Shown in pieces: positions 6,001-42,000 of a stretch of DNA of 64,000 bases (positions within the stretch are counted from its first letter, which is position 1; every line of letters starts with the position of its first letter). The notes beneath the pieces were generated by a model. The model made no database searches and was not told the DNA's origin. It worked only from the letters and a program-made list of their open reading frames with translations. The DNA is taken from positions 26,832,795 to 26,896,794 of the forward strand of contig NC_092670.1 of NCBI RefSeq assembly GCF_964355755.1. The letters run 5' to 3'. The translations under genes were made by a program, and so were the position numbers. This DNA is from Antedon mediterranea. Its lineage: Eukaryota > Animalia > Echinodermata.

Positions 6001-9000
6001 ATTTGATGTTTTATTGATTTGTGTTATAGACACAGCGATTACTGCAATCATTGTATACTAAATTACATTGAGTTATTCACCTGGCTGTAGGGTATATGTC
6101 TGAGGTTAACAGAACACAGTACACTAACACATGCACTATAAAGCCATTTTCGGAGTACCGCATTACAAAATGTTCATTTTGTTTGAAGTGTTTTTCAATC
6201 AAAGTTTATTATTAGTTCGTCAAAACAGATCCATACAGTATTTAGGATTTAAATTTACATTATTTAACATTTGTTATTAAATGTAATGGAAACAGTTGCT
6301 CTAGCCTAATAAACAGTGTGTAAGCATTTATTTTTTCACAATTTTTCCGCGGCTCAGGAGGGGGAAACGCCCTCCCAAACCCACCCCCACTCGGTGCTAC
6401 TGCTACGCACCTTGTTTACCACTTTCATGCATCTTCCCCCCCCCCCCCCCTCGTTACAGATCCTAGATCCGCCACTGCACATCATTATCCTGAGACACAA
6501 TTGCACTCATAATGGATCTTCTTTCTTTCATCTGTTTGTTTGTGACTCCAATTTGTCAACAGTCAACGCGGTCTTTTGCACATTGTTAAATGCCAATACA
6601 TAGCTTCATTACTATTGTACAATAATGTCTAGCTTCTGATGCTTTTATTGGCAATGCATTCAGTACCTAAAACATGTCTAAGTTTCTAGTGGCATTGATA
6701 ATAAATCTCCAGATATATATTGTTTTATTATCTTCACTGGGAACAGACGTGTGTATGTATAAAATTTTTCAGTTACTCAAAAATATTATGCAACAGTGTC
6801 ATATGGAATGATGACAATGAATTGGTCTCTGAGTTGTCTCTGATACCTTTTATTACATGATTGTACTTGCACCCGGATAGAATGAGGTTTAATCCAGTTA
6901 TTCTTATTATTATATTGTGTTGTATTTTTTAATATCCAGGGTATTATTATTTGATTATACATATTACCATTATTACACCAAAACAAAATAAACATCTTCC
7001 CCGAATAAATAAATGCCCGGGCCTTTTACTTCTAGCATTCTGAATTGTTGAGCTCGACATTTCTATCAAAATGTTTGGTCGTCCTTGGGGGTCAGCAATA
7101 TTATAAGCAAAAGTACAATTACACACAGTAGAGGATTTGTTTTAATTCCGATAATGAAACCATTAAAGCATCAGTTATTGCATAACATTACTGTTGTGTA
7201 GAGATATGTTTTTTTTGTTTGAAACATTAGTAATAGTATTTCTGTTCATCTTTTAACCACATTTTCAATTACAATGAATGTAAATATGTATATTTCAAAC
7301 AATTTGATACCAAATTTAAGTTTCTACGACCAGTACTTACAGAGATATGAAGATGTCCTGGTATGTGAGTCAAAGGTCAGAAATGGCATTTCTGATCATT
7401 TTTTACTAATATGCCCCATTAGACTGAATACAAATGCATGCCTTCTGAACATTTTCAGACCAAAATTGACTTGCTCATGCGACCAGTTGTTGTCGAGATA
7501 CAAGTACCTTTTTTTTATTTGTTCATATAACCCTTGACCTTGACCCTTTGACCTTTTCTAATATTTTTCAAAATGTGTAACAAATAACAATATATATTTT
7601 GAACAATTTAAGACCAAATTCAATTGAAGTTACGGAGATGCATATATGCCCTGGGTTGTGGGTAAATGGTCAGAAATAGTATTTCTATGACTAAAATTTC
7701 CCATTAGACTGAATATAAATATAAACCTTCTGATCAATTTGAGACCAAAATTACCTTGCAGTGACTAGTGGTTGTCGAGATTTGGTGTTTTGTCTTATAA
7801 CCTTTCACCCTGACCTTTTGACCTTTTGCCACATTTTCAAAATGTGTAACCAAGCCAAAAATGATTGTTTGGCCATCCTAAACCAATTTCAAGTCAAATT
7901 TTCTGGACCTCAAAGTGGATACGAAAGTTGATCTAGCTAACCCATAGAGTAATAAGCCATTCAAAAAGGGAGTCTTCCAATTTTAGATATGGAGTAAAAC
8001 AGTTTGATTTTCAGTCTCCAACCTCGCGTGACAACAATTTTCAAAACATTAAATAAGCTTTACAAGATTCAAGATTCAAGACATTTTATTGGTCTACTTT
8101 AAAATGGAAATTTGGTTGCTTGCCATAATTAAGACAATAAAATAACAATAAAAAATACATCAAATTGGAATTTAAGGAAATGTTAAAATACTATTAATAT
8201 GTTAAAATACTGTTAAAAAACTATTAAAATTTCAGATTCCAAAAATGCCATGCTCTGTAAAATTTAAAATAATAACAAATACATGTAGTTATCGACAAAC
8301 ATTAGAATTGTACATATTAATGCTATTTACAAACAAAGGACAGGATAGTTTTACATTATATTGGTTTTTGTGGGTCTGTCTAATGCCAGATCTATTAAAA
8401 TTGTAACAGTAATGTAGTAGGATATTTTCAACTTTTCTTAAAATATACTTCTCGTAAATCAGTGAACATGGCGTTAAAATCTGTTTTAATGATACATTGT
8501 GCAATTTTACGTGGTATTTTACGTGGTATCTCTATTTTTTTCTTATCTTTTTCAGTATGATTACCATAAAAACATCTCATGCTAAAAGATAAAATACTTA
8601 AAATAATACTTTGATAAAGTAGGATTAAAATAGTGTTGTCAACTCTAATTTGCTTAAGCCTTCTGAGAAGGAAATCATAAAAGAGTTAGATTCCCACTTT
8701 ACATTACAATGCATTACATCTCATTAATTATCACAATTAGATATGTGGTGCATATTTGTCCAATCCAATTGCAAGAATAATATATAAGGGGTGTTATAAT
8801 AATTATAATGTATGTAAATTTCGAAACTGACATAACATTAGTCATTGATTAAAACAGTAAGGATTGTTTTTATTTTCAATTATTTTATTTCGAAAATACG
8901 TTGATTTAGCTTTTTTAACATTGCGCTTGACCTTGTTTCTTAATTTACAATACATATCATGATCTTCTTTGATTTTACTCTTTTTAAATTTATTAAAATA

Positions 9001-12000
9001 TTGATCACGAGTTCGTATATCATTTAGAATATCTGTGTTAAACCATGGATCTGACCTTTGTTTCACCCTCATCTTTCTAAGGGGTGCCACACAATTTATG
9101 ACGGAGCTAAGAGCTTCCTTAAATGACGACCATGCGTCGTTAACATTAACTTTAGATGTAACGTTTGTCCAATCTATTTCGGACAGTTTTGACAGGAATT
9201 CCTCTTTGTTGTACTGTTTAAATGATCTTGAGTAAATGGTCTTATGCGATGAGTATTTTGCTTTACAAGATTTGCGTGTGCAAAATATCAGCATATGATC
9301 ACTTAGGCCTGTGTTTATAACACCGGAATTAGAAATTTTGTCTTGAGAATTACATAGGATATGGTCTAAACATGAGGATGAATTCCTGTCAAAACGAGTG
9401 TCTTCACTTATCAAGTTAGAGAATCCTAGTAATTCGAGAACGTTTTTATAATTCGTAGATTGAGTACAATCTCTGTTAGTATTTATGTTAAAATCACCAT
9501 TTATGATGGTTTCAAGGTTGTTAATTTTATTTACAGTGTCTTCGAAAAAGTTTAGAAAATTGTTGACATTCTGTTCAGGAGGACGGTAATAGGTTCCAAC
9601 AACGATTGGTTTTGTATCCGGGAGGTTGAGTTCAATCCATACTGATTCAACATTATTGTCCATTAAATCTTCTCTCTTGGTAAACGCTTTGTCCGTACGC
9701 ACATACATACATACTCCACCTCCTCTACGAGAAGATCTATCATTGCGAACTAAGGTATATCTATCTATGTTTACTTCATTATCAGGAACAGTCTCATCTA
9801 GCCAAGATGGATATAACTGCTGCCTTTGATTTTAATGCGATTTCCCTTATTTCAGATATTTTGGGAATCAGCGATCGTACATTAAGTTGAAGAAAATGCA
9901 TTCCTTGTTTGTTAATTGTTTTTGCGATGTCGTCCATGTCATCGTCTAGGGGATCAATCTGATTAGCGTCAGATACATCTTGGTTCTGATTTTCATGAAA
10001 GTCTGCATCATACCATGGGAGCGAGTTCCAGGAGCATATATCGCAAATATAAGAGGATGACTTACCGGCGCACTTTGTATGTATTGTTTTAATGTCGCAT
10101 GCATTGCATCTGATGATTTTACTTCGCTTGTTAAATCCTCTACTGCATACGTCGCAATATGACTTTTGTTGAGGTCCAGGATTTAGGGAGACATCCCCAG
10201 CAATAATGATCAAGTAACTTAACGTTAAGTGGTGATGTTTTCTTAATATACGTTTTACAGGATATCTCGAAGAGCTTGCACCGTACATTTGCCAGAGTGG
10301 TGATCTCAAATCCAAGTTATCCTGCTTAATGTGGGTAGGTGCTGACCAGTTGCTTGCGATGTCAGGTCCGACTTCAGTGAAGTCTAAAGTCGGTTGACTT
10401 AGGGTGCATATTCTTACTATGATACATAGTAAATGGATGAATAATGTTCTAAATTGTACTTTATACTGCATGATGATGAGCAAAGTAGGAAATACGTTGT
10501 TTTATGTTAAAAATGTAAGCATTCAAAGGCAAGCGTTTCATCGGTTGTCACGATACAAAAAACAAAATTACAGTACGACCAACAGTAACTGTAAATATTA
10601 TTGTTGTGATAATCCGCACTAGTTTGTTTTGTAAAAAAAATATCCAAACAGCCAATGATTTAGATGAGGAGAGTGAACCTAGGCCTAGTCAAAAGACTAA
10701 ACGTAACGTACCGTATGGTGGTAAGCACAATGCTTGGCGTCCCTGGTTACCGGCGTTAGCAACAAACGTATAAAAAGGCGCGAAAGGCCTAGCTGATCAA
10801 AGTGAAGAAAATGATATAATCCTAACTCACAGCTTGTAAATTAAAACAGTTTTCTTCAATCAATATTTGTTGCTGTATCGATATGTCAGTTATTTAACTG
10901 TTGGTATATCCAAAAATCAAGAAAATGAATTTTAAAAGACAATCAGTGTAGAGGGAAAATTAACTACGTCTACACACACGTGTATGGATTTTATAAACGG
11001 TGGTAATTATGTCTACAAACGACCAAACAATCCTAGGCCTTGCAAGGCTAAAACGAATAGGCCTATTCTAATACAGTACTAACAGGCCTAGGCCTAACTA
11101 GGTTGCAGCAATACGAAACTTTGACAAGCAACTGGAACTAATATAATATGTAGGCTAATTATGTTTTTCCAACGATTCCACGTCTTGTAGGGATGTCCCC
11201 ATTGATTAATCAAAATCATAAAAACGATCTACACAAAAGTATACTGCTGATGCATATCTCGGTGGTGTTTACAAACAAAACAGAGGCAAGACAACAGGTG
11301 GCTCTGTTGTATTTAACAGTAATAAACGATAGTTTAATAGTGCATACTATTGCATGCCATGTGACCCACAATCGTCTAATCAAATGACAGGAATTTATTT
11401 AGGTGTTAGATAATAGAAGATAGCATTCTATTGTATAATATAGTATTAATTATGTTTAATGTTAAATGAATAATAATAGATGGTAATTGATGGTAGCCAC
11501 ATTAACCTTACTCCATGCATTATATTAACTTTTCCTTTATATATGGGGTTTTGTTATAATTAATTAATAAACTATTTATAACTTAACATTTAATGTTTAG
11601 TTATATCAGCATAAATAACTCCACTGATTTCAGTGGACATGGAAGTTTTTGCTGTGTTCATAAAATCTAAGTCTGCATACATTAATCCTTGTGGGTCAAC
11701 ACACTTTGATCTTGAACCATGTGGTGAAACTTTTGACATGGCTAACTTTTTTGAATGTTTTTTTTAACATGAGGATGATCCTTATCTCGAGGCTTGTCAG
11801 AAATGTTCTCTTGCAGTTTCTTATTAGATTCATTTTCTGGTATGTTCTTTGAAATATCATCATTTCCATCAATTGCAGATTCTCTACTATGGTTAACATT
11901 TTTTTTCAGTTTTTTAGGTTTTGTGTCTGGTGCGTTTTTAGTTTTGATACTTGCAGGTAATGTAGAAGCCTTGTTCTTTTGTATACAAGCATATATATCT

Positions 12001-15000
12001 CCACTTGGGCTTTTCCAGTGATTAACTTGGTTTTCACTGGTTTCTGTTTTAATCGCTACTGTTGTGTTAACTCTCTTATCTGATGTCTGTTTGTGTATTT
12101 CTACAGGCGCATACATTGGAATCTCCTCATGTTCAGGTAATTTATTCTGATCAATATTTTGTTTTTCTGATAGGTTGTTAACTTTCTGAACTTTAGCGTA
12201 CATAGGAAATACATCAAGAGTGTATTGCTGTTGATTATTAAGTGATCCTGATGTAGTTATATTTTTCATATTCAGTTTATCTTCAGTGATATTTGGTGTC
12301 TGTTTATATTTACAATATAAATGGAATCCAAAAAAGCCACAAATTGTAATGATTATGATTACTACTACAATTGCTATGGGTATATAAAAACTAGTTGTTT
12401 TCAAAGTTTTCTGAACTTTATCTTGGTGTTGATTAGTTGAATGAGTTGAATATGTTTGAGTAGCAACTGGTTGAGTCATAGGCATTGTTAATCCATCAAC
12501 TACTTTAATTACTATTTTTCCTGAACCACTCTTTGAATCAAATGTTGCTCTACATTTTAACACCTTCCCATTATCTATCAAAGAAATGCTTGCAAAGCAA
12601 CGTGTATTGCTTCTTTGTGAGTGTAAGAAAGATGATGATCCATTGTATTCCCAAGTAAATTCTATTAGACCAGCACATGTGTCACATGTTACTATGCATT
12701 GAAAACATCCCTCACTTCCAGAAATAATTGGCATTGTATTTTGCGTAAAAACAACTACCGGTAATGATGAAGTTTCTTCTTTAACAATATTCATTAGATT
12801 TGTTGAACATGATTCTGCTTGTCCACCTTCTAAGGATGATGCTATACATGTAAAATAATTATTTACATTTTTACTTGCCAGTATTGTTATATTAAGGTAA
12901 CTTTTTTCTGTTGATTGAGGAAATGTTGCAGAGTTAAGGAATCCTTCAGAGTCAGATTTGTACCATGTAAGTCTTGTATCATGATTGCCTGCTCCTATCA
13001 TACATGAAAGTGCAATTCTTTCAGTCAATGTAACTGTTTTCGGCAAATCCATGCATCTTGGCTCAGGAACTTTTTTGACAATAAGTTTTGCTGAACTTTG
13101 AATTCCTGTTTTCTGAAGAACAAGACAAAGAAAAATTCCTGCATCAATATGCTTCACATCAGTAATCCTCAAAGTTGTGGTAATATACTTACCATCACCA
13201 GGCTTAAATGTGAATGTTGTGTCAACTGTATACTTGTTATTGTTTATTTCCATTCTATTGCCATTAGAAATGTACTGTTCACTTGAATACCATCCAACAG
13301 TGTATGTAAGCTCTTCTTTTACATTTTTATTCATTTTGATTATACAGTTGAACGTTGCCTCCTCACCTGCAGAAGCTACTACATCTACAGGATCTTTAGT
13401 TATTACTGCACATTTTACAACTTGAAAATAATTCATCAGATAAAAAAACAAGAAAGTACAAATGAACTTTAGTTGAATCATCTTCCCACTGTTATTAAAA
13501 GTCTGGTTAGAGAGTTAGATCTCTTGTGTTATTATTCTTGTCAGAAAACATACATGAATGATTTTCAATACATATGAGCACTGTGCTATACAGTAATGTA
13601 TTATACACAGAATGACTAGTAGCATTTAGACCATCCAGGAAACTTGTAAAGGAAATCAAGGTTTTAATATTTCCCAAGTGATTGTGTGTTATGTCTGGGT
13701 GATGAATTGTTATTGGTTACAGTATCAATGCATTGTCATTTGTTTATTGATATGAATAGTTTGTTTTTATACAATCAATAATTTTGTATTAGGCTACTGT
13801 AACACTACAGCCTCAAGTCTGGCACGACTCGCCGCGATTGAGATTTTAAGCCAGGTTTGAGTTTATTGAGCGGTCACACTATTCAAATTCTGTTGGGTTG
13901 TTCCCCGATCGAAAGCGGAAATCAGTTGGCTAGCTAAATTATGTGAGCCAAAAAGAACCAAACTCAAACAGAACTATATAAGAAGTACTGTAAATTAAGA
14001 AATGTAGTTCAAAGATCAGTCAAAAATGCAAAGTCTGAATTTTTCATTAACAAAATATCTCAATGTATTAATCTAATCCAAAAAAGTTATGGTCTACCTT
14101 AAGTAGCTTAGGTTACAAAAATAACTATAAACGTGATTCTAATCTAGTTCTCAAAAACGAAGGGGGTGAAATTTTACATGATCCCAAAGACATTGCAACT
14201 CGTTTTAACAATTATTTTGCGGATATTGCTAACAACCTTAAAAAAAACCTTCCTCCTAAGAAAAATTTATATAACCCACATTCAGCAAAATTTAAAAACT
14301 ATTATGATAAAAACCTAAAAGATTTAAACTTGAGCCTGTTAGTGATGATTTTGTACACGCTAAATTAATTAGATTAAATGTTAGTAAAGGTGCTGGCCCT
14401 GATGAAATTCCTGCTCGTTTCTTACGAGATGGGGCAGGTTTTCTCAAGCTTCCACTGACACATGTAATTAATGCATCAATTGTTAGTGATAATGTACCTG
14501 ATGACTTTAAACTGGCTAAATTTAAGCCTATTTTTAAAAAGGGGGATCGTACAGACCCCAATAACTATCGACCTGTTAGCGTTTTATGCACTGCTTCTAA
14601 AGTTCTTGAAAGGGCAACGTATATCCAACTAGCCAATCATCTTTTGAATGCTATTGAATTGAATTGAAATATATATTTATACTGGGTAACCTCTTCAGTC
14701 AAAGACTGGTCTCCCAGAGGGCCCAGTTGGTGATCAGTGGCTGTGATGTACTAATACACCGGGGTAACCCCCTACTCGTCTCGAAAGATGTACTAGGTTC
14801 TTTAAAGTGCACACGAGCTAGATGTGTACACTGGACCTACGGTTTATAGTCCTTATCCGAGAAGACTCGTTCTACCACCAGAACCATGGAGTGAGTGAGC
14901 CTCGAACCCCTGCCGATGTTATGGCTACGTGATTACGGTTCCACTGTCTTAACCGCTCGGCCACTCACTCACTAAAATCTTAAAAACAACAATCTGATAT

Positions 15001-18000
15001 ATAGCCTACAATCTGGCTTCAGAGAAGGTTTCTCAACTGAGACCTGTCTCATTCATCTCATCGACCATGTTAAATAAAAAATGGCTAATGGTCAACTTAC
15101 CGGGATGATTTTGTTGGACATACGTAAAGCCTTTGATTCAGTTAATCATGGTATTATATGTAAAAAATTGTATGATATAGGCTGGTTCCGGTCTTATTTA
15201 TCAGACAGAAAACAATATGTTGCTGTTAAGAATGCAACATCGGGTCATAATAGCATAGAACATGGGGTGCCACAGGGTAGTATTCTGGGCCCTCTACTTT
15301 TCTTAGTGTATATTAATGACATTGTTACATCAATTAATCCTGAATGTAAACTTTTTCTTTATGCCGACGACTGTGCTATTTTGTATAGCGATCCAAATCC
15401 TAATATTATTGAAGCTAAATTGAACGATTGTTTAAATAACTGCAATGACTGGTTAGTTGACAATGGTCTCACGATGCACGCTGGAAAAACTGAGAGTATT
15501 ATATTTGGTACTAAACAACGTCTAAACAATGTTAATTTTAAATTAAATGCATTAGGTCAAGACATTGTAGCCAGCAAAGTTATAAATTATCTAGGTGTAA
15601 AAATAGACCAACAGGCTTCTGGTGACCTAATAGCCAATTCTATAATTCATAAAATAAATAGCCGCCTTAAATTTTTGTACAGGCAAAATAAAAATCTAGA
15701 TAAAGTTAGTAGAAAACTACTATGTTCAGCTTTACTCCAACCGCTCTTCGACTACGCTGCCCCAGCATGGTGTTACGATGTATCACAGCCTCTAAAAAAT
15801 AAACTTCAAACTTCTCAAAATAAAATAGTTAGGTTTATTAATCAATCTAATGTTAGATCTCATGTTGGTCAGTCGGAACTTCAAGAATTAAGACTTTTAA
15901 ATGTGGTAAATAGGGTTAATTTTTTAAGTTTATGCTATGTTTTTAAGATTTTTAATGACACTGCTCCATTGTACCTAAATGAGCATTTTACACTTATCAG
16001 GGATTTTCATGAGAGGGTGACCAGAAGTAGCACTATGTGTAATTTCCGTATCCCAATAATTAAAGGATGTGCTAGCAAAACGGAACAATCTTCCTCTTTA
16101 TATCAAGAAATCGTCGAACATAACCTCTTTTAAACAGACTCTAAAATCATTGTATTTTTTAATTTTTTTAAAAATGCATTTTATACAAATTTTAAATATT
16201 ATACTTTTATACTTTTAAATATTTCGTATTTGACATTTTGGATTTTAACTGTTAATCTAATCTCTTTTTTGTATAAGGATTCTGTGCAATTTGTTTCTCT
16301 GTGTTTCTGGACCCCAGTGGAAATAAGTTTTTAACTTTTTGGGATATCCTTTTAACTCGAGTCTGTTGTACTGATTTTTAATTGTTTACATGTTTTATTG
16401 TTTGTATCTGTGTTGACTCGTTAATAAAGAAATCAATCAATCAATCAATCAATCTGTAGTACATACTTAGAATTCACTAGGCCTATGCATTTTGTTGTTT
16501 ATTGTAGATGATTTAAAATATATATGTAATCGACTGATGGTAAGCATAGGCATCCCATTCGATCCATGTTCGGTCACATTACAAAAATCTCAATTGCGGT
16601 GAGTCGCGCCAGGCTTGAGGCTGTAGTGTGACCGTAGCCTTGGTTTTCATTTACATACATTGTATTGAGAGTTTTTAAGTGCCAAATGATCAATTAATCA
16701 ATCAATTAATCATGCTTTTACAATTTATTTTTATAACAAAGGTTGATGAAGATTGTGATATAAATTTAAATTGAGCTAACCTAAGTAAGTAAGCCTGCCC
16801 AGGCCTAGGCGTAAAAGAATGAACATATAACGGAAAATAAATACTGATTAATGATTCCTTAGTACATTAACAGAAGAATTTCCATCAACAATTATATACT
16901 TTACAGTAATAAAATTACTAATAATTCTAATAATAATAATTTATCTTCTTTATCGAGCCAAATCGCCATATTTTCAGGGCGTCGCACGTACCAGGTTACT
17001 CCTGTGAGTGACCAATCACAAACGGTCTTTCAGCGCATCTATTAAGGGCTCATCATCAGCCCGGGAACGGGAGGGGTCAGGGATTAATTGTTATTGTATA
17101 TTGCACGCTCGAGCGTCGATGACCTGCTGCCCGGGGCGCTCTTTAATTGTTACTGTGTTTTGCATGCTCGATCCATTTTGGGAACGGCCGAGAAAAACCG
17201 ATCTCAGGGTTTGGCAATTTCAAGGAAATTTATCTAAAAAACACCTTTTTCGCATAAAGGGGAATTAAAAGGTGCCTCACCTTGCGGTTTAAGAGGAGAT
17301 AGAGGAACAAATTTTGGCTTAGTGCTATTATTTTATAGGCTATATATGTTTAACGTCAAACTAGGCCTATAGCTAGCGTATGATGTTCGTACGCTACCGC
17401 TCTTTACCAGCTAGGCCTACAAAACTAAGCCCAACTAAGCTACAGTAGTCCTAGAAACGTCTACGAGAGAACTTTTGACGCAAGCTACTACGGTAGTGCA
17501 TTGTTTAATGGTTTAATAAGTTGCATTAATTATTTTTACAAAACGTCAAAATTGCAGGTCAGTCTAGACATCGAGAGAAAAAGTACAGGAAGTAACTCCG
17601 ATCTGCACACTGCGAACATGCATCAGAGAGTGTGTTTTACAAGTATGACGTCATGAGCTCAGATATGCATCATGAATATTCATGATATATGCACGCCTTT
17701 ATATAATAATAATGCCTCCGGGCCAACTAGACTAGTGCAGTGAGAGGTGCCATTTTATCATGAAAATTATGTCGGAGAGTATACATTTCCAACGTTACTT
17801 TTTAAATATTTTTTTTAATAAAGCATATTTGATTTTACAATTACGGTACTAAAATAATGGATGCATGTATTTATATAATTCATAATATATGAATCAAAAG
17901 GCAAAGTTGGAATATTGCACACAGAAAAAGATTATGGCATAATATGACCTGAACTTTTTTAAAATTTAATTTAATTTTATTAAATCGAAACCAACAGCGA

Positions 18001-24000: not shown

Positions 24001-27000
24001 TTTAGTTGTTTAGTTTATACACGTCATAAGTTTATTGTACTATTATTTTAGAATACATCTGTTTATTTAGCATTAGTTCACAGTCTTCTAATCTCTGCAT
24101 ACTGTGTTATTTCTGTAGTTGGTTGTGTTATACTATTTCCACAATTCAGTAAATCCAAGTCAGCATACTGTAACCCCTCAATGTTTAATGTCCTTGCTTC
24201 TAATGGAGTAGACAGGGTAGCTGATTTAGTTTTCACTTCTGGTTCCATTGTAACAATAGGGCTTGGGGTTTCTGCTTTGTTTTTTATATCAACATTTATA
24301 TATGTGGTTTCCTTTGCTTCTTTATTTTCTCTGGTATTGTGTGCTTCATTTAAAGCTCTCATTTCAACTAAGTTTTTCTTCATTCTTCTTTGATCCAAAG
24401 ATAGTGCTTTAGACAATGGCTTCATTGTTAATCTAGGCTTGACTTTTTGAGTTTGAGATCGATTTATACCGCCATACATGATATTTTCCAGATCTGTCAT
24501 TTGCAAAGATGTTTGCACTTCATGAACACTATTCTTGATAGTATCTTGTTCTAAAGTGGATGCCCGATGTTTAAAGTTTAGTGTATGAATTTTATCTGGA
24601 CGTGTTGAAATGGAAATTTCAGCAGAAGTTTCTTCGATTGGAACATTGTCATAAAGACTAATTCGTTGATTTTGGTATTCTGATTGGTCATTGCAAGTGT
24701 TAATTTCATCATTAATTTCTACTAGGCCTACTGGTTTTAAATCAATTGTACAGTTATTGGTAATATTTTTTCCTTCAATGTCTGGTTTTATACAATTATC
24801 TTTTTCATTCTTATTTATATTTCTTTGTTTCTTTATACAATAGAGAAGAATTGTTACAAGACATACCATTAAAAGGAAAAGACTCATAACAATCACAATA
24901 TAAAGGAAAGCAGAGTTAGTTCCAAATATGGGATTTGGTGTATCATCCGTAGGACTAGAAGTAGTAAATAATACATTTACTATTGTTTCTGTACTCATCC
25001 TAAGCTGTGAAGAATCCGTACCACTCCTACCTCCATGTTCGACTGTACAATTAACTGCCTCTCCAGCATTGAATGTTGATACATTGCCAAAGCACTGGAT
25101 AAAGTCATGAAACCGTGGTAGTGGATTATCCAACAAAGAGGACCATGTATATTTCATTTCTACATCTTTTAGATTTTCTTTCACAAGACACTCAAAACAT
25201 GCCACATCACCAGGACTTATTGGATTCTGTTGTTGAACACTAACATTCAAATATGAGGTCAATGTCTTTGTGACTCTAGACGTGCAAGACACAAAATCAG
25301 ACTTATTCTTGTTAACATGAGTGGCCTTGCATTTGAATGTCCGTCCTTTATCACCTGCTTGAACTGTAAATGTGTAATTCAAAGTGAACTTTCTTCCAAC
25401 CACTTTCTGATTACCTTCAACTAACCTCAATTGATTGTCTTCCACTATCCGTGACCACCAGTTTAGCTCAATAGAATGTGATAGTTGCTTTGCTGTACAT
25501 GCAATTGTAACATTTTCTCCAATTATCACTTCTGTTGGTATCTTGCTACAACGAGGTCTGGGAATTGATTTTACAACTGTAATGTGTGCAGATGTTGCCA
25601 CAGATAGATGGTCGTCAGAACGTAAATAACACATCAATATGCCTGCATCAGTTAGTTTAGCTTTTCTAATTTTCAGAATGCTAGTTTTATAATAATACAG
25701 TGTATCTTCTACAATGGTTACATTGATTGAATATCGTTTCTTTTCAAAGTATAAGTCATTTCCAAGAGCAATAAATATGCTGTCTCTCTCCCATGCTAGT
25801 TGGTATTGTTTTTCAGTTTCTTCCAGTTTGACAATGCAGATAAAGTTTGTAGTCTCGTCCTCTGTTATTTCAGTATCTTCTATACCATGAGTTATCTCTG
25901 CACATTTAACATTCTCAAATACATACAAAATTGAAATAGTTAACATCCAAACCTTACCAAACTTTTTCTGCAGCCACATATCTTTAAAAAAGAACAAATT
26001 ACAACATAATATACTGTTGGTGAAAGACTTTATATTATTATACATTACTTACTTACTAACTCACTAAAGATATTATATTTGTTTCAACTGTTTCAAATTC
26101 AGTAGTTCTACTCAATATTAACTACAGTGAAGTAAGGTAGTAGTAACCATAACCTATTATGCAATTATTTTAAAGTTTCTTTCTGTCTCTGAATTTAATT
26201 ATAATACCTACTTGTTATATTGTTGAAACTATTCCCCAACTTCAAACAGTGCTTTAAAGTTGTACAAATTGGTTAATGATTATTTCACAGTAATGTAAGT
26301 CTGTGCTAATTCCTGAAAGATGATGTAATTGTTTGGATAACTTTCACTAGCTTCCTGGCTTTGATTTTGATAACTGTTAATACAATGAGATTTACAGCAC
26401 ACTGAGGAAGTTAGGATGAACACCCATGGGTACCAACCATCAGACAATCAAATCATAGTTATTCTTCAAATATAAATAGAAATAATTGTCAGCTGAGAGG
26501 AGGCTTTAAAGTTGTAATTTTTTCACACAATTGTTTAACCATCAGGCCTGAAAACACAATTGTTTATATGTTGCCCAACCTGACTCACCTAGAATTTGTA
26601 AAAACTGTCCTGGGCTACCTACTTTTAGGCCCTATTGATGTTTAAATTATTATTGATAAAAAGTAAAACAGACACTTTACAACTCTACGGTTACACTGTG
26701 CTTATCGGGAAATCAAATACTTCAGTTTCTGTAAAAATCAGTGAACTAGTGCCATACATGTCTTTTTAAAAAAATGATTAAAGTGTATCAAACATTTTTT
26801 TAAATCCTGAATAATATTTTTTTATTCGATGTATAAAGTATTATGAACACAGCATCATAATTGTATATCATCTTGATAAAACACAGTCATACATCAGCAT
26901 ATATTTAGAATATATATTTATTGATAAATAACTTACAAACATCATCAAATTAATTGATCAAAGTAGTTTACTACAGCACACAGAATACCATAATGTAAAT

Positions 27001-30000
27001 GTGCACTGGATATTTTGCTTTCAACTTTTAAAGTATGGCCCACTCTGATATGCTTGAGAATCAGGTGTGTTCTTGAAAATAAACTTCATAAAGAACATGT
27101 ATGATTGATTTTTGTATTTCACCAAAAGAAAATCTGATCACGAGTTTCTTGGACAGACCACAGTTGATGGTCCCATGCATCGTCAGTATTTGACGACTAC
27201 ACTGAATCTTTTTGTATGGAATGGAAGACGTGTGTCATTTAAATCAATAGTTTCAAGCCCTAAGATTAAAAAGGTTTCACATTTATACATTGCCGATTAC
27301 AATATAAAAGATCTATGGTTAGGCTTAAGCCTGGCTTTAATCTAAGACCTGGAGAAAGTCTCAGTTAAGCCTGCCGACTAGGCTATTTGATACATTATCC
27401 ACATAGCCAGTCGGCAAATTGGGAGTCGGCAAACTGCAGTCGGCAAACTGGGAGTCGGCAAACTGGCCTAGATCCATCAATAGGCTGCAGAATCACCACA
27501 CACACACATACTGACACAACCCATCGCTTGTCACACCACAGGGGAACGTTTTGAGTGTGATATGGTTGAGTGATTCCATCGCGTCATCACATACGTCATA
27601 CTTCTAGCTACTTCGTGGGTCTCAATAGACAAGTCTCACAAAGCGCGAACATTTCTAGTAAACACACTTTTTAAATAAATTTAAAAAAAATATGAATGTC
27701 ATTTTTTTTCAGTGGCTGGATCTCAATGGAGATACAAAAAAAGGCGAAAAGCTAAATCAAAACGATAAAGTAAAACAGCCAGAAAAGTTGGCAGAGCTTT
27801 CGGGCAACATTAGCCCTTCATCAGTGCAATTGGACAAAGATAGATATATAAAGTCAGGCAAGTGCTGCCTGAGTGGACAGGAATAAAAGAAATAAAACAA
27901 AAGAGGCACAGGCTGATGAATAGAGGGTGGAGTTAGTATTGGGTAGAAAACAAAGAAGATAGCTTGGTATATCGTAAACAATTTTGGAATAAAATTTTTT
28001 AAAACAGCTTAAATGGTGGTTAATATTGAAACTTAAATTTAGGTAGTAATTTTACCAATCTGGGAGTATGTTCCTAATGTTACGTCCAAAAGGTTTTGTC
28101 GTTTAAATTGATATGCCCTCATCTTTCAGTATTTTATTCATAAAGCAGGATTTCCGAAGAGATACTTTTATATATATATATAAACACATCAGGCACAGAA
28201 GGACATTAATTCTAAACCGCCCGGTGATATACTGAAATTTAAATAATTAATTTGAAACGATAAAGATAAGGAAATCCGTGAGAATGAGAAAATCTGTGAG
28301 AATAAAAAAAAGTCCCCCCAACGTAGACTCGAACCCGGAATATCTGCTTGATATGCAGATGTCCTAACTATTAGACCACTGGGGCTTTCATGGTATTGTT
28401 CAAACGCGATTAGATAGCGACTCTTCCACATTCTCGGCGTAGTACAGCGGAACAACACTAGTCCCTCAATTGTATGCACGCACACCAGATCAAATTGCTA
28501 AGCCTTCATCTTTCAGCATTTTATTTTTTGAAGCGGAATCTTCGAAGAGATATATATATAAATAATAATAATAATGTGTTTATATATATAAAAATGTGAA
28601 ATTCAGCCATATCTTTTAGCATTTAAATGATCATCAAGATCGTTTGTAAGTAAATTATGAATTAGCGCCCACACACTTGAAATTGAAAAGGAAAGATATG
28701 CTTTCTCCGGATACCACCGGAATTACGTCTGCCAAATGTCAGCATGTACTACCATTCAGCGGTTTCAGAGGAATACGTACAATTACACAACCAATTTAAT
28801 AGCATTAATATATATAGATAACATCTGTTTATTATTCATTCCATGCCAGTAGTTGTATATAATTGAAAGAAATCCTTTTGATATTCTTATAAATATTTAA
28901 ATGTTTTATTCATTGTAGTGACATTGTAGATTAATTTACTCCTGGATCCCATCAATTCTAACTTGATTTAAACAAATATACACTTCTCTTGCTTATATAG
29001 TGGTATTTCTATATATTTGTGTATGTAATGAAATTATTGTTATCCAGTTCCTAGTCAATTATCAAACCATAGTTTGAAACAACTATTATACATTTATTTT
29101 TGACAAAAAGTTTTTGATGATATTCCAACTTCCCCACTATACCCAAACTGCCAAATAAACTAAACATTAGAGGACGAATACAATATGAATGCAAATCAGC
29201 TTTGATGGATAACAATACCTATCAATAAACTGTAAAAGCACTATCCTTTATTCACATTTCCAAAATTACAAATAATTTTCTGATGAGTGCTTGTCTCACG
29301 AATCTGAAATCTGTAATACTGTAAATGCATTTCACTGGTTTTTTTGTTGTCTTTTTTACATTTATTGTCTCTATATAATTGTTTGTTAGCTTACAGTATA
29401 CAGTATATTTCAACTACAATGTGGTGGTCTGAGCTGAAGGTGGAGGTTCCCATCCGTCATCTTTATAATATATATCATTTTCAGTTTGAAGTACAGAGAT
29501 ATCAAAATTGTTTGGTAAAAAATTAATATCAAGATGATTAACAACCATGTCACCTTTTACTTCATTCTCTACACTAACGTTCTTGTAATATTCCATGCGT
29601 GCACTTAGATTTTGTTCAGATGGCTGTTTTTGATGGCCTGTTCGTAAGCAAATTATTAAAATACAGATGCTAAGCAGTAGAAAGATTGAACCACAAACTG
29701 CAGCAATTATGATAACCATTGTATCTACTGATGTAGATTCTTGTTTTTCTGATTTGGCAGTAGACATAGCTGGATTTGATGTGATTTCATTCCATGCTAC
29801 ACTGGTGATTTTAGGCATTATTGCAGTTGTTCTAATAGCTTGTGTTGCTACCTTCGATATTTGCTTCCGAGCTTTCGTTGTGGGTAAGCTTGTAGGTGTA
29901 GTCTGTGCTAAAGTTGTAATTGGAGTTGATAATGTTAGTTTAATTGATTTTCTTTCTTCTTGAGTACTTGTGGCCACTGTACAAATTAAGTTTAAACCAT

Positions 30001-33000
30001 CGTAGCTAGCCTGAACATTGTGAATCGTCAAAGCACTACCATCAATATTATAACTGATTCCTGCATCTTGAAATGTCCATGCATACGATGTAACAGTGCC
30101 ACTTGACACAAGGCAAATAAACGTTACATCTTGGCCTATAACTGCTATTTCAGGTGTTTGCATTATCAAAAGATTTAAAGGACTTTCAACCAATAAGTTT
30201 ATCATACAAGCCTGAACATTATCTAATGTATTTGAAGTCTGACATATATAAGAAATAACACCTTCTGTATTAGGAACTGTCAGTACATAGTTCAGGCTTA
30301 AAGGATTGTTTGTATTTTGACTGTTAGTTGAAATGATATTTCCATCTATTGACCACATCATTTCTATTAGCGGATCTGCAGGGTCTGAATCACATCGCAA
30401 TGTTATTATGTCATCAGGCTGCACAATCGTTTTCTCTGGTGTATAACACATTGGTGTGGGAACATAATTCGTAATGTACAGTCTTGTAGAGGCTTTGACA
30501 TTAGTCTCTTGACCATTTAAAATAAAAGTACATTGATACGTTCCTAGATCATTTTCACCAACCTCTAGTATTAGCAATGTTTGTGTTATTGAAACATTTT
30601 GAGTAACAGATAATCCACTTAGTGCATACTTTATTGTATCACCGTTTGTCACAGAATCACTTGAAGCAATTTCAATATTGTCATTTTTAGTCCAATGTAT
30701 GCCATGTGGAGTAATAGATTCATCAGAAGTTAATGTTAACGAACATTCAAGGAATCCACTCGAAGACATATTTACAGTCACATGATCTGGAAATGTTATT
30801 TCAGCAGAAAACACATTGTTTCCTATACCAAAAAGAACAAATAAGAATAGCCATGATGAACTCATCCTGTTTGTATTTTTCACAAAAATATTCACTTTAT
30901 ACATTTTCTGCTGAAAAACAAAAGTAATACTGGAGTTAGAGTTTGTATCAGATTAAACTTTAGCAAAATTTGGTTTATGATACAGAATTTAAGTACAACT
31001 TTAATGCAAGAAAAAACTAACTCGGAGAGTGCACTTATGTTGAAATTAAACAGAAGGAATAATTTTCTAGGATGGTATGTACAGTAAGGTAGTTACAAGG
31101 AAACTGTACTGTGACATGATACAAAAATATATGTTATATGGTTCAATTTTCTACAATTCAAAACAGCTTACCTTATATTTCTGGAAATATTTTGTGTTAT
31201 TTTTTATACAATTCGAGAAAATTCTTGTGTCATGTTGGAATTGTCTGTATCACCTACACACTAGTACCAAGTTTGTTATACCTGAGTGGGCTTCAATAGA
31301 GGTAGTATTTAATCATGAATAGTCTATTATTCTGCTGATTGTGTTTACCTAGGCTATAGACTCCCCTATTCATAGTCGTAATCAGATGACTGTTGCTTTT
31401 ACGCTTAGTACTTTTCTTTTTGTTGTACAGTTGAAAAGTTTTTTTAATACTTTGCAGGAACTATAAAACAATATGTACTTGAAATTGCTTTTTGAAGATC
31501 TAAAACTATAGTATTATCAAACCAAACAAAATCACTGACAATACATATAGCATGGCATAGATTATTTTTTTTAACAAATTAATGAAAAATTAGTACCCTT
31601 GTTGAGCCGTGAAATGTGCAAAAAGTCAAAGTGCAAACAACCGCAAACTAAAACACAATGATGTCCCGCCGGATGCAATTAGACATACTGTATTTTAGGT
31701 TCAAGGTAAGTAATTGAGTATTATGACCTGAACTGAAGAATATGATATGTTGTTAGGGCTGAATTCTGTCTATTTTGTGTCATATACTATATACAGTATG
31801 CACATTATAATCTTTATACATACTAGAGGGTGAGCTCACTTCTCTCGCTCCCCCTTTAGGAAGTGTAGACGATGGTTCTCGGAATGATAATGACTCGGGT
31901 AAAAAAGGTTTTAGGAGGACGTTCTCCTTGTATGATTTCTGTCGGTTACCATTATTGGAGATGCTTGACATTCGTAAAACTAAACCTACTCTGTTTCACA
32001 GTGTCTTAGATGATTAATAACATTTTAAAGTATAGTGTTTATTGTTTGGTAGGGCCCTTATAGAGCAGAGGTGGGGAGGCGGAGTTCATTTGAGGGTGGT
32101 GCTTATTCGAGGGATGTTGAATTTTTTAGTTTTAATAATATGGTAAATAGTATAATTGTGTTATTATAAATATAATACAATAGTATGTGTAATGTGGATG
32201 GGCGTTTATTAGATAGTTGGGTTTTATTGATGTTTTATTGGGGAGGCGTTTATTCAAATAAATACCATCCTAATAACGAATACATCATTTAATCTAAACA
32301 TCTTTTGAAACTAACTTCCTTGACAGAGTGGGCCGTTTCAGCCCAAAAAAGAAGATGTTTTAGACGGCTTGCAACATTGGCAGACATCCCGGTCCTAATG
32401 GGACACAGATATCCTATACTAACAGTTATTCCTACCAGCTTACTCAATAAATCTTGGCTATCGGGATTTCCCTTGATTTTAAACAAAATGTCCTATCATC
32501 AGATCTCCCTATGTAATTTTATAATACTATTCCCCACAATAATATTCCGATGCTTTATGGCATATATTTAATTTGATCTTTATTAATTTTTACTTTTTAA
32601 CTACTGTACCTTCACACGTGCGGTCCGTTCCGAAAATAAACAAAAAACTAAAATGGGTATAGCCACTAACGTAACGGCCAACTTAGTTGAAACCAGGTAG
32701 TTGTAAGTTGAACTCATCGTGAACCCGGAAATTACTTTGACCGGTACAATTGAAATTGAGTTGAAAATGTACCGATGAAATCAGGAATTTTGTTTAAAAA
32801 CTCTTTATAATATCTTCCTAAGGTAGAAATATGAAACAATATCGTAATAGTGAAAACTAATGTTATCAAATTTACATTTCGCGGTACATCTGAGATAGAT
32901 CAGGTAGGTATCCTAGGCAGAGATTTGTACCTATATGTCAGAATTACCCATAATTTATATACTGTAGATTACAAGCAGTGTAAAATAGGTGAAATTACGG

Positions 33001-36000: not shown

Positions 36001-39000
36001 TACAAGGAGTTATCCGCTGAATGCTGATAACTAATAAGATAGAAAGAAAAAAGATCCTGAAAATAACAAGGGGTTATCCACCAAGTGCGGATAACCAATT
36101 AAACTGCTACGTCAAATAGTTGAGCGCCGTTTTTTTTAAAAATATTTCTTATTTATTTTTAATTTTAAAAATTGATCAATCTATATGTATATGTTTTCCA
36201 GTCAATTTGTTATTATTGCATTATAAAATATTCCATCAATTTAAATAGTATATGAGATCTTTTAAAAAGTATTGATTTGGCTTTAAAAAAATTAGGCATA
36301 TAGCACTAAGTACATTTGAAATTATTATGAGATTTATATTGTTATTTTAATTATAGTATCAGAAATCTTTAAAAATAAAATGTAATGAGTTTTTTAATTT
36401 AAAAGAAAATGCAAATCTCTAGTAGTTTTTTTTTTTTTTGTACCTCAGATTTCCTTGGCATGGAGTTAGAAGCATATGTAGCACGGCTTCCAGTAGAAGT
36501 GAGAGTTGAGAGAATGGGAACAAGAAGTGGTTTGATTAGAGCACGTCTTAGAGGGGCATCTGTAGCTACTGGCAAAGTCATTACATTTCTTGATGCACAT
36601 TGTGAATGCACTAAAGGTTGGCTTGAACCGCTTCTTACGAGAATTTATTTAGACAGGTTGGTTTATTTTTGCGTAATTACTTATTCTTGTTGTTTTTTAA
36701 TGTTATTTATTTTTATTTAAGTACTGTATAAATTTTGCCCATCATCCTGACAATAGAAAGTTTCGGAGGTTCAGTACAATCTGTGAACAGTTTTTAAGTG
36801 TTCCCCTCTTAGGGGATATGTGCATTTAGCATATCTTATTTTGAATGTTAATATTTATTATTTTTCTTTCTTCTTATATATTTGTACTTGTTGTATTTGT
36901 ACTGGCACACTAAAAAAAGGGGAAAATGAAATTGAATGGGTCTGCACTGGTGAATAAATATGCACATACAACACAGGGCTTGATTTATAATATTCAAATC
37001 TTTTCTTGTTATACTTTAATATTTGTCACAAATTGGGTACATTTGATAATGGTGGTCACAGTCCTCATTTAACCAAACAAATTACCACACACAATAAACC
37101 GGGTGCTGGTCAACTTTAGATTTTATTGTTAAGTTTGTCAGTCTAGTCTCGAGACTCCCTCGAAAACCCCCAAAAACGGTTTATTTCAGCCCATCTCACC
37201 AATGATCTAAATTTTGTCAAAACATAGTGGAAAAAAATGAAAACTGACAAAATATCGGTCCGAAAGGTCATGTCAGATCCCCTTAAAGTCACCCCTTCAC
37301 GTTAATTTCAACCCACGTCAAATCAGTAAAAACATAGTAGTATATATTGACAGGCAGCCCAGAGAAATTTGGTTAGATGAACTAGGTACCAATATCTGAC
37401 TATTTAAGTGGGTTGGGGGTCACTTGAAGTCAATGAAAATGGGAGTCTGCCAGGTACCACCTGCTGCGTCTAGACCGGGGGACCCCGAAAGGTGCTAAAA
37501 AATCGGCATCAAATAGATAGAGATTCCCGCTAATTTTACCACTATGGGATGCATATTGTATCCTTATACTAATATTACCACCGACAGACATTTTGTCTGC
37601 TGCAATAGGCCCGCCAGACCCCCCGAGGGAAGGCCTAAGAATGGGGATAGGCTAGTGAGGAACCACTCAAAATTAGGGTGTCACCAAACCTAAGATCACG
37701 AAACCTAAGACCCAATTAGACCTAAGATTACAAATTCTAAGATATACTACAGCTTAAAAACAATTGTTTATCTAAACACAATTTTAAACATAGTAGGTTT
37801 CATTTAGCTTTTTACCATAAATTTAATTAAATACTTAGCACAAACAGAAATAAACTCATAATATTTTCGCCCGTTGAGTAAATATATACCTTTGTTTCAC
37901 TACAAACTGGACAGTTTGTTTGTTGATATATATTTACTCCATTGTGCTGGTTTCAGGGGTCGGCACCTGCATTGTATTTTGACTCCAAATTAATTTAACT
38001 AACTTTATTCTGAATACCAACACCTTAGAATTATGCCTCAAAAGTACTTTTATGAAAGAGATTCACATAAAAAGTAACAAATAAATACTTGGTATTATTT
38101 ATAAATAAAAGTTGGTGATTTTACAGACGTGTTCCTTGCACACTTTAGCATACTCAACTTTCAATATTTTCGTTTCTATGGAGCGCCAAAAGAGCAACAA
38201 TAATACACATAGAACATAAATTTCAATATGTTATAGCTCCTCAGAATGAAAAGAGATACTCATGATTAAAACTTTTTCTGGTAGCTGTTGAATTGTAGAT
38301 ACAAATTCATGTACAAATTTTGCACATCAGATGTTGTGACGTCATATGGCCAGTTGAATTGTAAAAGTTGTATTTTCATATTTTGCGTCATAGGTCATGA
38401 CATTTAAAAGAGCGCGCATCCATATTCTACGTATTCAAATTTCTTCAACACCTTAATATGTTGTTGCTCAGATAATTCCCTTCCGAAATTGCTATCTACG
38501 TACTTCATTTTGATGACATTATCATGTTAAAAATTGGATTAAAAGATGGGTCTCGTAATTTCATCTATTCTGCACTGTATATAGTATGTATACTGTGTGT
38601 ATACTTAGACACAAAACAGAGAGCACACTAACACCATCATCTTTTCTTCAGGTCACAATGGCATAATCGTTTTTCTGTGCGCAATATTCTAACGTATGAC
38701 ATACACGTGGCATTTATCGTGGGGATAACCTAACTCATCCATAGTTTTAATAATGATATAATTTGTTTCTCAACTGACAATTTGAAGGATTTTCCTCAAA
38801 TAAGCACCTTTAACATGACTCTTTTCAGATACAATTTCTTATCTTTTTTTTCTTTTAGAAAAACGGTTGTGTGTCCAATCATAGATGTTATAAGTGATGA
38901 AAATTTTGGTTACCATGCCGGTTCAGACCAGACATATGGTGGATTTAACTGGAAACTAAATTTTAGATGGTATGGTATTCCACAACGAGAGAATGAAAGA

Positions 39001-42000
39001 AGGAATGGGGATCGCACATTACCTCTTAGGTATAGGAAGACTTTCATTACTATTTTGTTAAATTCTCTGCTGGTCATTAAACCAATTTGAACACTATCGA
39101 AATTGCACCATGGGAACATGTAGTGAAGCTTCTCAATAAATACCAACTGAGTGTTTTCAATGAGCCTCTCCAGTTATTGTTGTATAGTGTCATAGTAACA
39201 CAATCTAGCAATTACAAAATTTACTACTGTGTTTAACTGTGGAATAATAAGGTCTGATTTCCCTTCTATACTCACTTCAGAATGTTCTTTTTAAAAGAAA
39301 AACATAAAAACAAAAACAAAAAAAATTTTTGTGTAGACTGAAGTGCATTTTTGGGAAATTTGTCAAAAAGTTCTTGTTTCTCCTTTTTTATGTTGTCGTT
39401 GATATATATCTTCAATTTAATATTTGTTTGTTTGTCTTTAATGAGTGTTGAATGCGACGGTAATATTATGTTATTAACACATTATCCTTATTAGGTCCCC
39501 GACCATGGCTGGAGGTTTGTTTGCAATTGACAAAAACTACTTTGAAGAGTTAGGAACTTACGATTCTGGAATGGATGTGTGGGGAGGAGAAAATTTAGAA
39601 ATTTCTTTTAGGGTAAGTATTGTTGATTGAAATTAGAATTCTAAGATTCAGAGGCAAGAGGTAGTTACTGAATACTTGCCTTAAAACCGATTTGAATTAC
39701 ATAAACTTGATAATATATTGGAGTATAGGTTGTAAACTTTCATTTTAGAGGGAGCAAGGCACAATTCAATTCCAAACCAACATTCCTTCTTTAGAATCAC
39801 ATAACACAACATAATAGATAAATAAATATAAAATTTGCAATATTTCAAAATAAGTTGGCAATTCATGAAAGCATATCTCTATATCAAGCCTACAAGAAAA
39901 AACGAATAGGACATGGTAGGACAACAAGCTTTTGTCTTGTTTTCAGTTGTAACTGTAGAGGGAGGCAACATTAAATTCTATTTTTTTTTTCTTAGATATG
40001 GATGTGTGGTGGTGTACTTGAGATTGTAACATGCTCCCATGTTGGCCATGTATTTAGAAAGTCTACCCCTTATTCTTTTCCTGGAGGAACTGGTAAAATT
40101 ATTAATCGTAATAATCAAAGACTAGCTGAGGTGTGGATGGACCAATATAAACATTTTTATTATAAAATCAATCCAGGTACTTTGTCATTATTTTGTCAAT
40201 TTTCAGCAGATTGTTGTTGTTTTTTAATGATTCAGTAACATTTAGTATTTTTAATATTTTAGGACACAACCGGCCTAGTTTAAATTGAGATCAGTTTTTT
40301 GCAAGCACAGCCATTAGAGGGTGAATGATAGTAACACTAGTGAACCCCTATCAATATGTCTTTGTTTATATATTATCATTTGAAAGAGTATTTAGAGGGT
40401 TAGGTGTAATGTTTTAATTATTTAGTATAAGGGTATGTAAGCTTGAGATTCTTAAAAAAAAAAAAATTAATTGCTCCTTTTGTTTTATTTATTTTATGGA
40501 TTCTTTTATTTTTATGTGAAGCTCATAGAAGCTTTATGCATTATGTGCTTAAATGTCAAAATTTATTATTATTATTGTTGACCTATTTTTTTCCTCAACA
40601 CAGTTAACGTTTGTATATAAACAAATAGTTGAAAATATAAAATCATCAATTTTACATTTTCGTATTTTCTCAGGTGTTCGTAAAACAGCATATGGTGATG
40701 TTAAATTTCGACAGCAATTAAGAGATAAACTGCAATGCAAACCATTTGATTGGTACTTGGATAATGTGTACCCAGAATCACAGTTTAGATTAGATGTTGT
40801 AATGATTGGTGAGGTAAGTTTACACTAGGTATGTTCACATTCACTGATCATGATCAAACCATTATGTGAACCTAAATACCAGCATGCTCCGTGCACAGAT
40901 TGATATTTTCATATTGTGATGTGATGAACCCCACTTTCGACCGAAAGTATTAACTGATTCAGCCAAAAAAGGACAGACAATTAATTCAGCAACGAGACAG
41001 GACCAGGCCTGCGTACAATGTTCCTACATTACCGCTCTTTACCAGCTAGGCATACACAACTAAGCCTAGCTAAGCTAGGCCTAAGACATTCGACGCGAGC
41101 TACTTAGGTAGTGCATTGTTTCTCTCATCATAATTAACCATAAAACGTACATTTAAGACAAGGAATGACCTGGTTTAATGTTTTTAAATAATATATATGC
41201 ATTATTTTTACAAAACATTGAAAATTGTAGGTATAGTGTCTTTATTATTTGTATACTAATGCATGTTCAGTTTTTTGTATGCATTTTGAGAATTTTTGTT
41301 GATTGATCCATGTTTTGAAAATCCATCGTTTATAACTGCGTCCAAAGTTTGAACACTTACATGAAATTAATTCTAAATCTTTTCACTGGCAAGTCATGCG
41401 TTTACTGTTACAATTTTTTGTTGTAATTTCAGATTAGGAATGGTGAAACAAATCAATGTTTAGACAGTATGGGCCGAAAAGAGCATGATAAGATAGGGAT
41501 CTTTAAATGTCACGGCCAAGGTGGCAACCAGGTATAGTGTAGTTGTTGCACTGTGATTGTTGACTTTTTTGGTTTAAACCTGATTTTGAATTGGAGGAAA
41601 CTGATTAGTCTATGGCTCTGTACCAGTTTCTTCTTTATTTTGATGGGAATTATGTTGCAGTTATGCAGCCTAAATGCCGGTTCAGGCCGCTGCGTTTGGT
41701 AATCACCAGCCCGTGAAAATCACATACAGCCGCATGGCCCAATTCAAGTATAGATGGCCCTAGCAACCTATATCTGAATTTCAATCCAAAGCCACATAAG
41801 AGGACGCAGGGAATTTAGAGGAGGCATAGACGATTAAATCGTCTACCCCTACCAACAGTTATTTTTATAAAGATTATAGGTCAGTGGCATTGACAGCCGT
41901 CCCCATGAAATGTTTTGAGCAAATTATAAAAAATATATTAAATAATGAGACGAATGGTATGATTGATAGCAATCAATTTGCTAATAGAGCAAAAAGGGGA

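Follow-up and report, generated by a model that had tools for sequence, protein, structure and literature searches.

A one-base loss in an A run probably cut a two-tyrosine tail from an immunoglobulin-type receptor of the echinoderm Antedon mediterranea

A receptor gene on contig NC_092670.1 of Antedon mediterranea (assembly GCF_964355755.1) stops just short of an open stretch in its −1 frame that ends in a pair of tyrosine motifs of the ITIM type. Has the gene lost these motifs, does it reach them by an unusual route, or is the stop an artefact? A sequence-only reading of the locus had ascribed the stop most probably to an assembly indel in a run of eight A's, with an A8/A9 allele, a recoding switch, or a plain truncation as the other options. 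We analysed the gene, here called receptor A, within a window of 64,000 nucleotides (positions 26,832,795 to 26,896,794 of the forward strand), and all coordinates below are those of the window.

Receptor A is laid out as a signal peptide, Ig domains, a single transmembrane (TM) helix, and a tail roughly 190 aa long.

11742..13481, minus strand: single-exon ORF of receptor A in its A8 version, 579 aa, with its ATG at 13481
13095..13406, minus strand: Ig domain 1, I-set or V-set (Pfam PF07679, E 2e-10; PF07686, E 3.3e-05)
12837..13040, minus strand: Ig domain 2 (Pfam PF13927, E 5.1e-11)
12315..12383, minus strand: TM segment, residues ~367 to 389, without K, R, D, or E
11394..11399, minus strand: AATAAA, a candidate polyadenylation signal by sequence match

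From aligned cysteines alone we infer a third Ig domain. In its Ig ectodomain and its one TM segment without a charged residue, receptor A agrees with an ITIM-bearing Ig-superfamily receptor. The tail of the 579-aa product keeps Y428, Y457, and Y497, each as YxxV/I; the −2 residue of the ITIM consensus is missing at all three, and a scan of this tail with [I/L/V/S]xYxx[I/L/V], the consensus drawn from excerpts of PMC12447643 and bioRxiv 10.1101/2022.03.04.482883, gave 0 matches. The annotated model of the gene, P0001, stops at the same TAG as the A8 ORF. At 457 aa, this model begins inside Ig domain 1 and is missing the signal peptide and ~120 ORF residues (13481-13478 region).

The region around the stop holds the following features.

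11758..11765, minus strand: A8 run, the site of the one-base loss; A9 in a related organism (sequence and contigs)
11742..11744, minus strand: premature 0-frame TAG
11590..11763, minus strand: orphaned C-terminal coding segment in the −1 frame, 57 codons followed by TAA (11592-11590)
11668..11685, minus strand: ITIM-consensus motif 1, L-x-Y-x-x-L, in the orphaned segment
11602..11619, minus strand: ITIM-consensus motif 2, V-x-Y-x-x-I, in the orphaned segment

After the A8 run the 0-frame reads K-K-N-I-Q-K-S and then TAG. The −1 frame stays open for 57 codons counted from the last upstream stop, or for the 55 that the initial reading had given, correctly, for a slip on the heptamer described below. 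At the local composition, a frame would stay open over 57 codons with a probability of about 0.008. With one more base, receptor A would be 630 aa long, next to 633 aa for its paralog, receptor B. This paralog and a third gene share the window with receptor A; all three lie on the minus strand and encode Ig receptors in a single exon.

24078..25979, minus strand: receptor B, paralog, an ORF of 633 aa with the terminal motif pair in frame
29414..30952, minus strand: receptor C, a third single-exon Ig-TM gene, about 23% like any match

A gap-free match between the hidden segment and the tail of receptor B, also reported at the outset, stood up well. The last 33 residues align without a gap at 11 identities and a BLOSUM62 score of 49, which 0 of 200,000 shuffles reached (the end-anchored alignment was fixed beforehand, so that the figure does not count as a search statistic). 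Pairwise BLASTP, gapped, gave an E value of 4e-05. The distance between the tyrosines (22) and the number of residues after the last one (6) are the same in both. When all six frames of the 64-kb window were scanned with a loose pattern for a terminal motif pair, two of the 7 matches were the tails of A and B. Besides its terminal pair, receptor B carries two further ITIM-consensus motifs and one T-x-Y-x-x-V in its tail (24100-24700, minus strand). Receptor C lacked an ITIM pair, and its other frames held no hidden tail.

Two LINE fragments in opposite orientation flank receptor A, at 8842-10501 (minus) and ~13985-16133 (plus), and they represent an endonuclease half and a reverse-transcriptase half. 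We rejected the idea of one LINE split by an inversion around the gene, since the pieces overlap with different sequence and must be separate insertions. Farther away, exons at 36400-40830 (plus) and 50400-62250 (minus) resemble, by eye, those of two polypeptide GalNAc-transferase genes in opposite orientation, two short exons of which gave no Pfam match.

Relatives of the receptors were sought among other animals. Word-based protein searches matched receptor A only to its own model, P0001, and receptor B only to P0002, which is Anneissia japonica LOC117102760 (49% identical). A profile search returned 263 proteins at E <= 0.001, and from the best 150 of these 263 we chose 39 family-like proteins by eye. 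Among the 39, 38 have a TM segment, 17 have at least one ITIM-like motif, and 5 carry a pair within their final 45 residues, leaving 33 of the 38 TM proteins with no pair. Automatic names of the five pair-bearing proteins (P0002, P0058, P0067, P0084, and P0109) are uninformative, and those with a named source represent crinoids, sea stars, sea urchins, and hemichordates. Their first motif is G/E-L-x-Y-A-D/E-L, the same word as in the segment of receptor A, with 22 to 29 residues from tyrosine to tyrosine. Four of these relatives, LOC117102760, Asterias amurensis XP_071801269, Diadema XP_071488653, and Ptychodera flava XP_070568247, labelled “cell adhesion molecule-like” and the like, resemble receptor A in having Ig domains, one TM segment, and a terminal pair that closes with YxxI/L/V near the C terminus; unlike receptor A, they encode the pair in frame.

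In a tree of the ectodomains with 21 rows (the 3 window genes and 18 matches), receptor A grouped with P0004 (support 100/99) and receptor B with P0002 (100/100), and both couples sat in a six-row clade supported at 99/99. P0004 is A. japonica LOC117102757, the nearest named relative of receptor A (41% identical over ectodomain and TM segment) and a candidate for its one-to-one orthologue; its longest contig has the same length as that of the receptor B orthologue, a hint that both lie in one cluster. From the 49% and 41% matches to Anneissia proteins, the window would be placed in a crinoid. Unlike receptor A, P0004 has a 73-aa tail without any pair and unrelated to that of A. This short tail is perhaps an independent loss and perhaps an artefact of gene model or assembly. 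Because the motif word, the tyrosine spacing, and the ectodomain tree all tie receptor A to pair-bearing relatives, we take the orphaned segment, on the strength of these comparisons, to be the ancestral tail of receptor A. Because P0004 and most family members have no pair, the data also suggest that the tails of this family turn over easily.

These proteins possibly form an undescribed ambulacrarian family of inhibitory receptors with a conserved terminal tyrosine pair, as judged from sequence. A search by title and abstract start of open-access PMC and bioRxiv found no description of a terminal-pair Ig receptor family and no functional work on its members, and the sections of PMC11999971 considered held nothing on one.

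Whether the A8 run is real could be judged from other sequencing runs. Nine runs contain the stretch. We compared seven of them, as assembled contigs and not as raw reads, and six cover the A run (X9 misses the site); the remaining two of the nine, X2 and X8, derive from samples S1 and S3. For this organism, X1, X3, and X4 come from sample S1, perhaps the source of the assembly, and X5 comes from sample S2 of another study; X6 and X7 represent two samples of the related organism (“organism B”) from one study. In this organism all four runs, from 2 samples and 2 studies, read A8, each in one long contig with no added base, at depths of 10 to 24. Both covering runs of the related organism read A9, with one T inserted behind 11757. 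X3 and X5 had 0 gaps over 11430-13209 and 11430-13695, respectively, and one contig gap in X5 falls outside that interval. A count of the run in other haplotypes had been proposed as a check, and the contigs supply one: X5 is the other haplotype, with 6 differences from the window in 2266 bases, 3 of them common to the related organism, and it too has A8.

The related organism is about 2.2% diverged, X7 differing at 51 letters in 2310. X7 has 21 gap letters, all listed, and within the ORF these comprise only the +1 and one in-frame −3; the reading frame of the related organism therefore appears, among the differences listed, to continue through to the motif pair. The X6 contig, spanning 11430-11906, has 5 other letters, four listed and the fifth (11889, as in X7) by inference. 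Across 165 nt of the orphaned segment the related organism shows 1 change (V to A), outside the motifs, both of which are unchanged. The sequence-only reading took the extension for coding, at present or until recently, and proposed that one added A would restore its frame; the related organism carries exactly that base.

Some details of the contigs deserve mention. No joints were listed within the receptor A gene in the runs compared, a result given no weight on splicing. A second in-frame A8 run lies in the tail at 11899-11906 (minus strand), where no run compared had a listed indel; the X6 contigs break at 11906/11908. X1 contains an extra short piece at 11757 (~18 nt, depth 24.4 against 9.95, no inserted base), which we took as an unrelated match. 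The X5 contig ends at 13695 while the DNA runs continue, and our guess is that X5 is RNA. Within sample S1, X4 departs from X1 and X3 at positions 11459 and 13348. Since these differences show that the contigs collapse heterozygous bubbles, a hidden A9 haplotype in either sample is possible, as is A8/A9 polymorphism within this species; A8 and A9 have so far been found only between the two organisms, with two samples each. From these contigs, and because the pair is in frame in the related organism, in P0002 from Anneissia, and in the sea-star, urchin, and hemichordate relatives, we conclude that A8 is a real, derived one-base deletion, probably fixed or common in this organism.

The reading that fits best, to which we give a probability of about 0.75, is an ordinary and likely recent truncation in which receptor A lost one base in its A run and the 579-aa receptor came to end before an ancestral, likely inhibitory two-tyrosine tail. 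This was the last option of the sequence-only reading, which had tied it to decay in relatives; too little time has passed for decay in the segment to be expected yet. Replication slippage would have cut A9 to A8 after the split from the related organism and before the ancestor of both haplotypes seen. Vertebrate ITIM pairs dock SHP-type phosphatases. By analogy, the 630-codon protein of the A9 version may be phosphorylated on both tyrosines and recruit such a phosphatase (vertebrate ITIM receptors serve as the model, from excerpts of PMC12447643 and bioRxiv 10.1101/2022.03.04.482883), the inhibitory signalling of the pair being deduced from its motifs only. In the A8 version, translation would end at the TAG, and the mRNA, coming from a single exon, would be likely to evade junction-dependent decay. 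The short form would keep the ectodomain, the TM segment, and the three other tail tyrosines and, by the same analogy, could bind ligand without the inhibitory output of the pair.

The constraint on the gene bears on how the A8 allele spread. Among the 37 0-frame differences listed between receptor A and the related organism, 26 change an amino acid and 11 are silent, a ratio of 0.63 that is not different from neutral (P 0.135; counts from the differences listed). Within the species, 6 of the 7 differences listed change a residue. Constraint on receptor A thus looks weak at the sequence level. Of the marks of a pseudogene, a second lesion was not found in the gene, and the N/S ratio of 0.63 is compatible with neutral evolution. 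If the orphaned segment were neutral in this lineage, 2.5 changes would be expected (P for at most one, 0.28), along with 0.16 new stops, and its undecayed state fits continued use as well as recency and says little. Drift, in a gene that looks weakly constrained, is the most likely way in which the A8 allele spread; pair-less tails are common in the family.

A less probable account, and on balance an unlikely one, is that A8 was selected or is balanced, the short form sharing the ectodomain and serving as a decoy or as a partner that does not inhibit, while A9 possibly still segregates. The human precedent is the 9A/10A variation of KIR2DL4, in which, according to excerpts of PMC6288254 and bioRxiv 10.1101/2020.11.20.391649, a lost A in a coding run likewise shifts the frame and removes the ITIM tail while leaving the ectodomain. 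Here a one-base change in an A run that removes an ITIM tail is found between this and the related organism. Everything upstream of the pair is intact, the codons of Y428 and Y457 differ from the related organism silently only, the closest Anneissia relative, P0004, is also without a pair, and the numerous amino-acid differences could reflect diversifying selection. However, A9 appeared in 0 of the 4 runs of this organism, the N/S ratio among the differences listed is below 1 and not significant, the TM segment has no charged residue that would suggest an activating adaptor, and the P0004 tail comes from an automatic gene model. The likeness to KIR2DL4 is also one of mechanism, as no KIR was found among the 17 matches of a PDB sequence search, which were generic Ig proteins only (DSCAM, DIP, CADM4). 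KIR2DL4 is multi-exon, its run closes the TM exon, and a single species commonly has both alleles, whereas receptor A, encoded by one exon, has its run ~180 residues down the tail, and A8 and A9 have so far been seen only between two organisms. The Hydractinia Alr family, as described in part of bioRxiv 10.1101/2022.03.04.482883, is similar in comprising clustered invertebrate Ig receptors, some with ITIMs and some truncated by frameshifts, and differs in having multiple exons, an Fn3-like fold, and a known allorecognition role.

Could the ribosome still reach the pair? The −1 frameshift of MMTV gag-pro uses A AAA AAC, and the same heptamer follows here, with a stem behind it.

11757..11763, minus strand: in-frame A AAA AAC heptamer, created incidentally by the deletion and out of this frame in the related organism
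11715..11743, minus strand: 8-bp stem with a 13-nt loop, 13 nt past the heptamer, −7.2 kcal/mol, at chance level

Both had been pointed out from the sequence and are present as described; neither exceeds chance. X XXY YYZ heptamers occur in frame 10 times in the three receptor ORFs (~1,750 codons), including an identical A AAA AAC in receptor B at 24285, and 0.41 such sites are expected in ORF A from codon use, so that an in-frame heptamer with an open −1 frame is found here at chance level. The stem is no more stable than shuffled sequence (z −0.69; its stability is matched by 54 of 200 shuffles), and in the receptor A gene 32 of 184 windows fold as stably as the stem window. No helix of at least 4 bp with negative energy starts at a spacer of 3 to 9 nt, and the best pseudoknot candidates have first stems of A-U and G-U pairs.

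These data bear on the proposal that the A8 allele is a switch, by −1 ribosomal frameshifting or polymerase slippage, that yields both a short and an ITIM-bearing receptor. The heptamer is in the correct frame, a −1 slip on it reaches the pair, and the segment is still open; in its X XXY YYZ site and open −1 frame the locus resembles the −1 frameshift signals treated in excerpts of PMC7618472. It departs from them in its spacer of 13 nt in place of the usual 5 to 9 nt between slip site and stimulator, for which the same excerpts offer one precedent of 13 to 14 nt, a viral signal dependent on a protein of the virus. It also departs from them in conservation, for the relative, only ~2% diverged, encodes the product directly with A9 (2 of 2 runs), and the tails of receptor B and P0002 are in frame. 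Moreover, conserved cellular examples of −1 frameshifting are very few, to go by excerpts of PMC11451614. With neither conservation nor a stimulator at the usual spacing, the switch suggested earlier is highly improbable. The plain truncation would make the heptamer an accident of the deletion. A low basal −1 leak at the heptamer is possible, and a newborn switch, in which the deletion itself made the slippery heptamer and let one allele give an ITIM-less and an ITIM-bearing receptor, is very unlikely; if true, it would be an echinoderm one-gene paired-receptor system caught within 2% divergence of its origin.

Still less probable is a cryptic intron whose removal would take out the stop and bring the tail back into frame, as in a splice variant of KIR2DL4 9A for which excerpts of PMC6288254 provide the precedent. 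The stretch from the run to motif 1 contains six AG dinucleotides, and 11 of the 17 nucleotides before a potential exon start at 11710 are pyrimidines, but by the pattern used the tail has only two weak donor-like sites (12313, phase 1, and 12212, phase 0), the best acceptor is in phase 2, the rest of the gene is a single exon, and the relative reaches its tail without any intron. The explanation once held likeliest, an assembly error in an animal that really has A9 and a receptor with ITIMs, has next to no probability: homopolymers are common sites of sequencing and assembly error, but four contig sets, each built independently and together covering two samples, two studies, and a second haplotype, read A8 at depths of 10 to 24, and the same pipeline reads A9 in the related organism.

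On the likeliest reading, receptor A would be a clean, dated case in which one slipped base cost an inhibitory-type receptor its signalling tail. It would be an invertebrate counterpart of KIR2DL4 9A/10A, and the intact allele in a near relative permits a direct comparison. Should the short form prove to be selected, or to be a product of recoding, one gene would be seen to give rise to a pair of receptors, inhibitory and non-inhibitory. What may matter more is the family itself, a set of echinoderm and hemichordate Ig receptors in which a terminal tyrosine pair has often been gained or lost.
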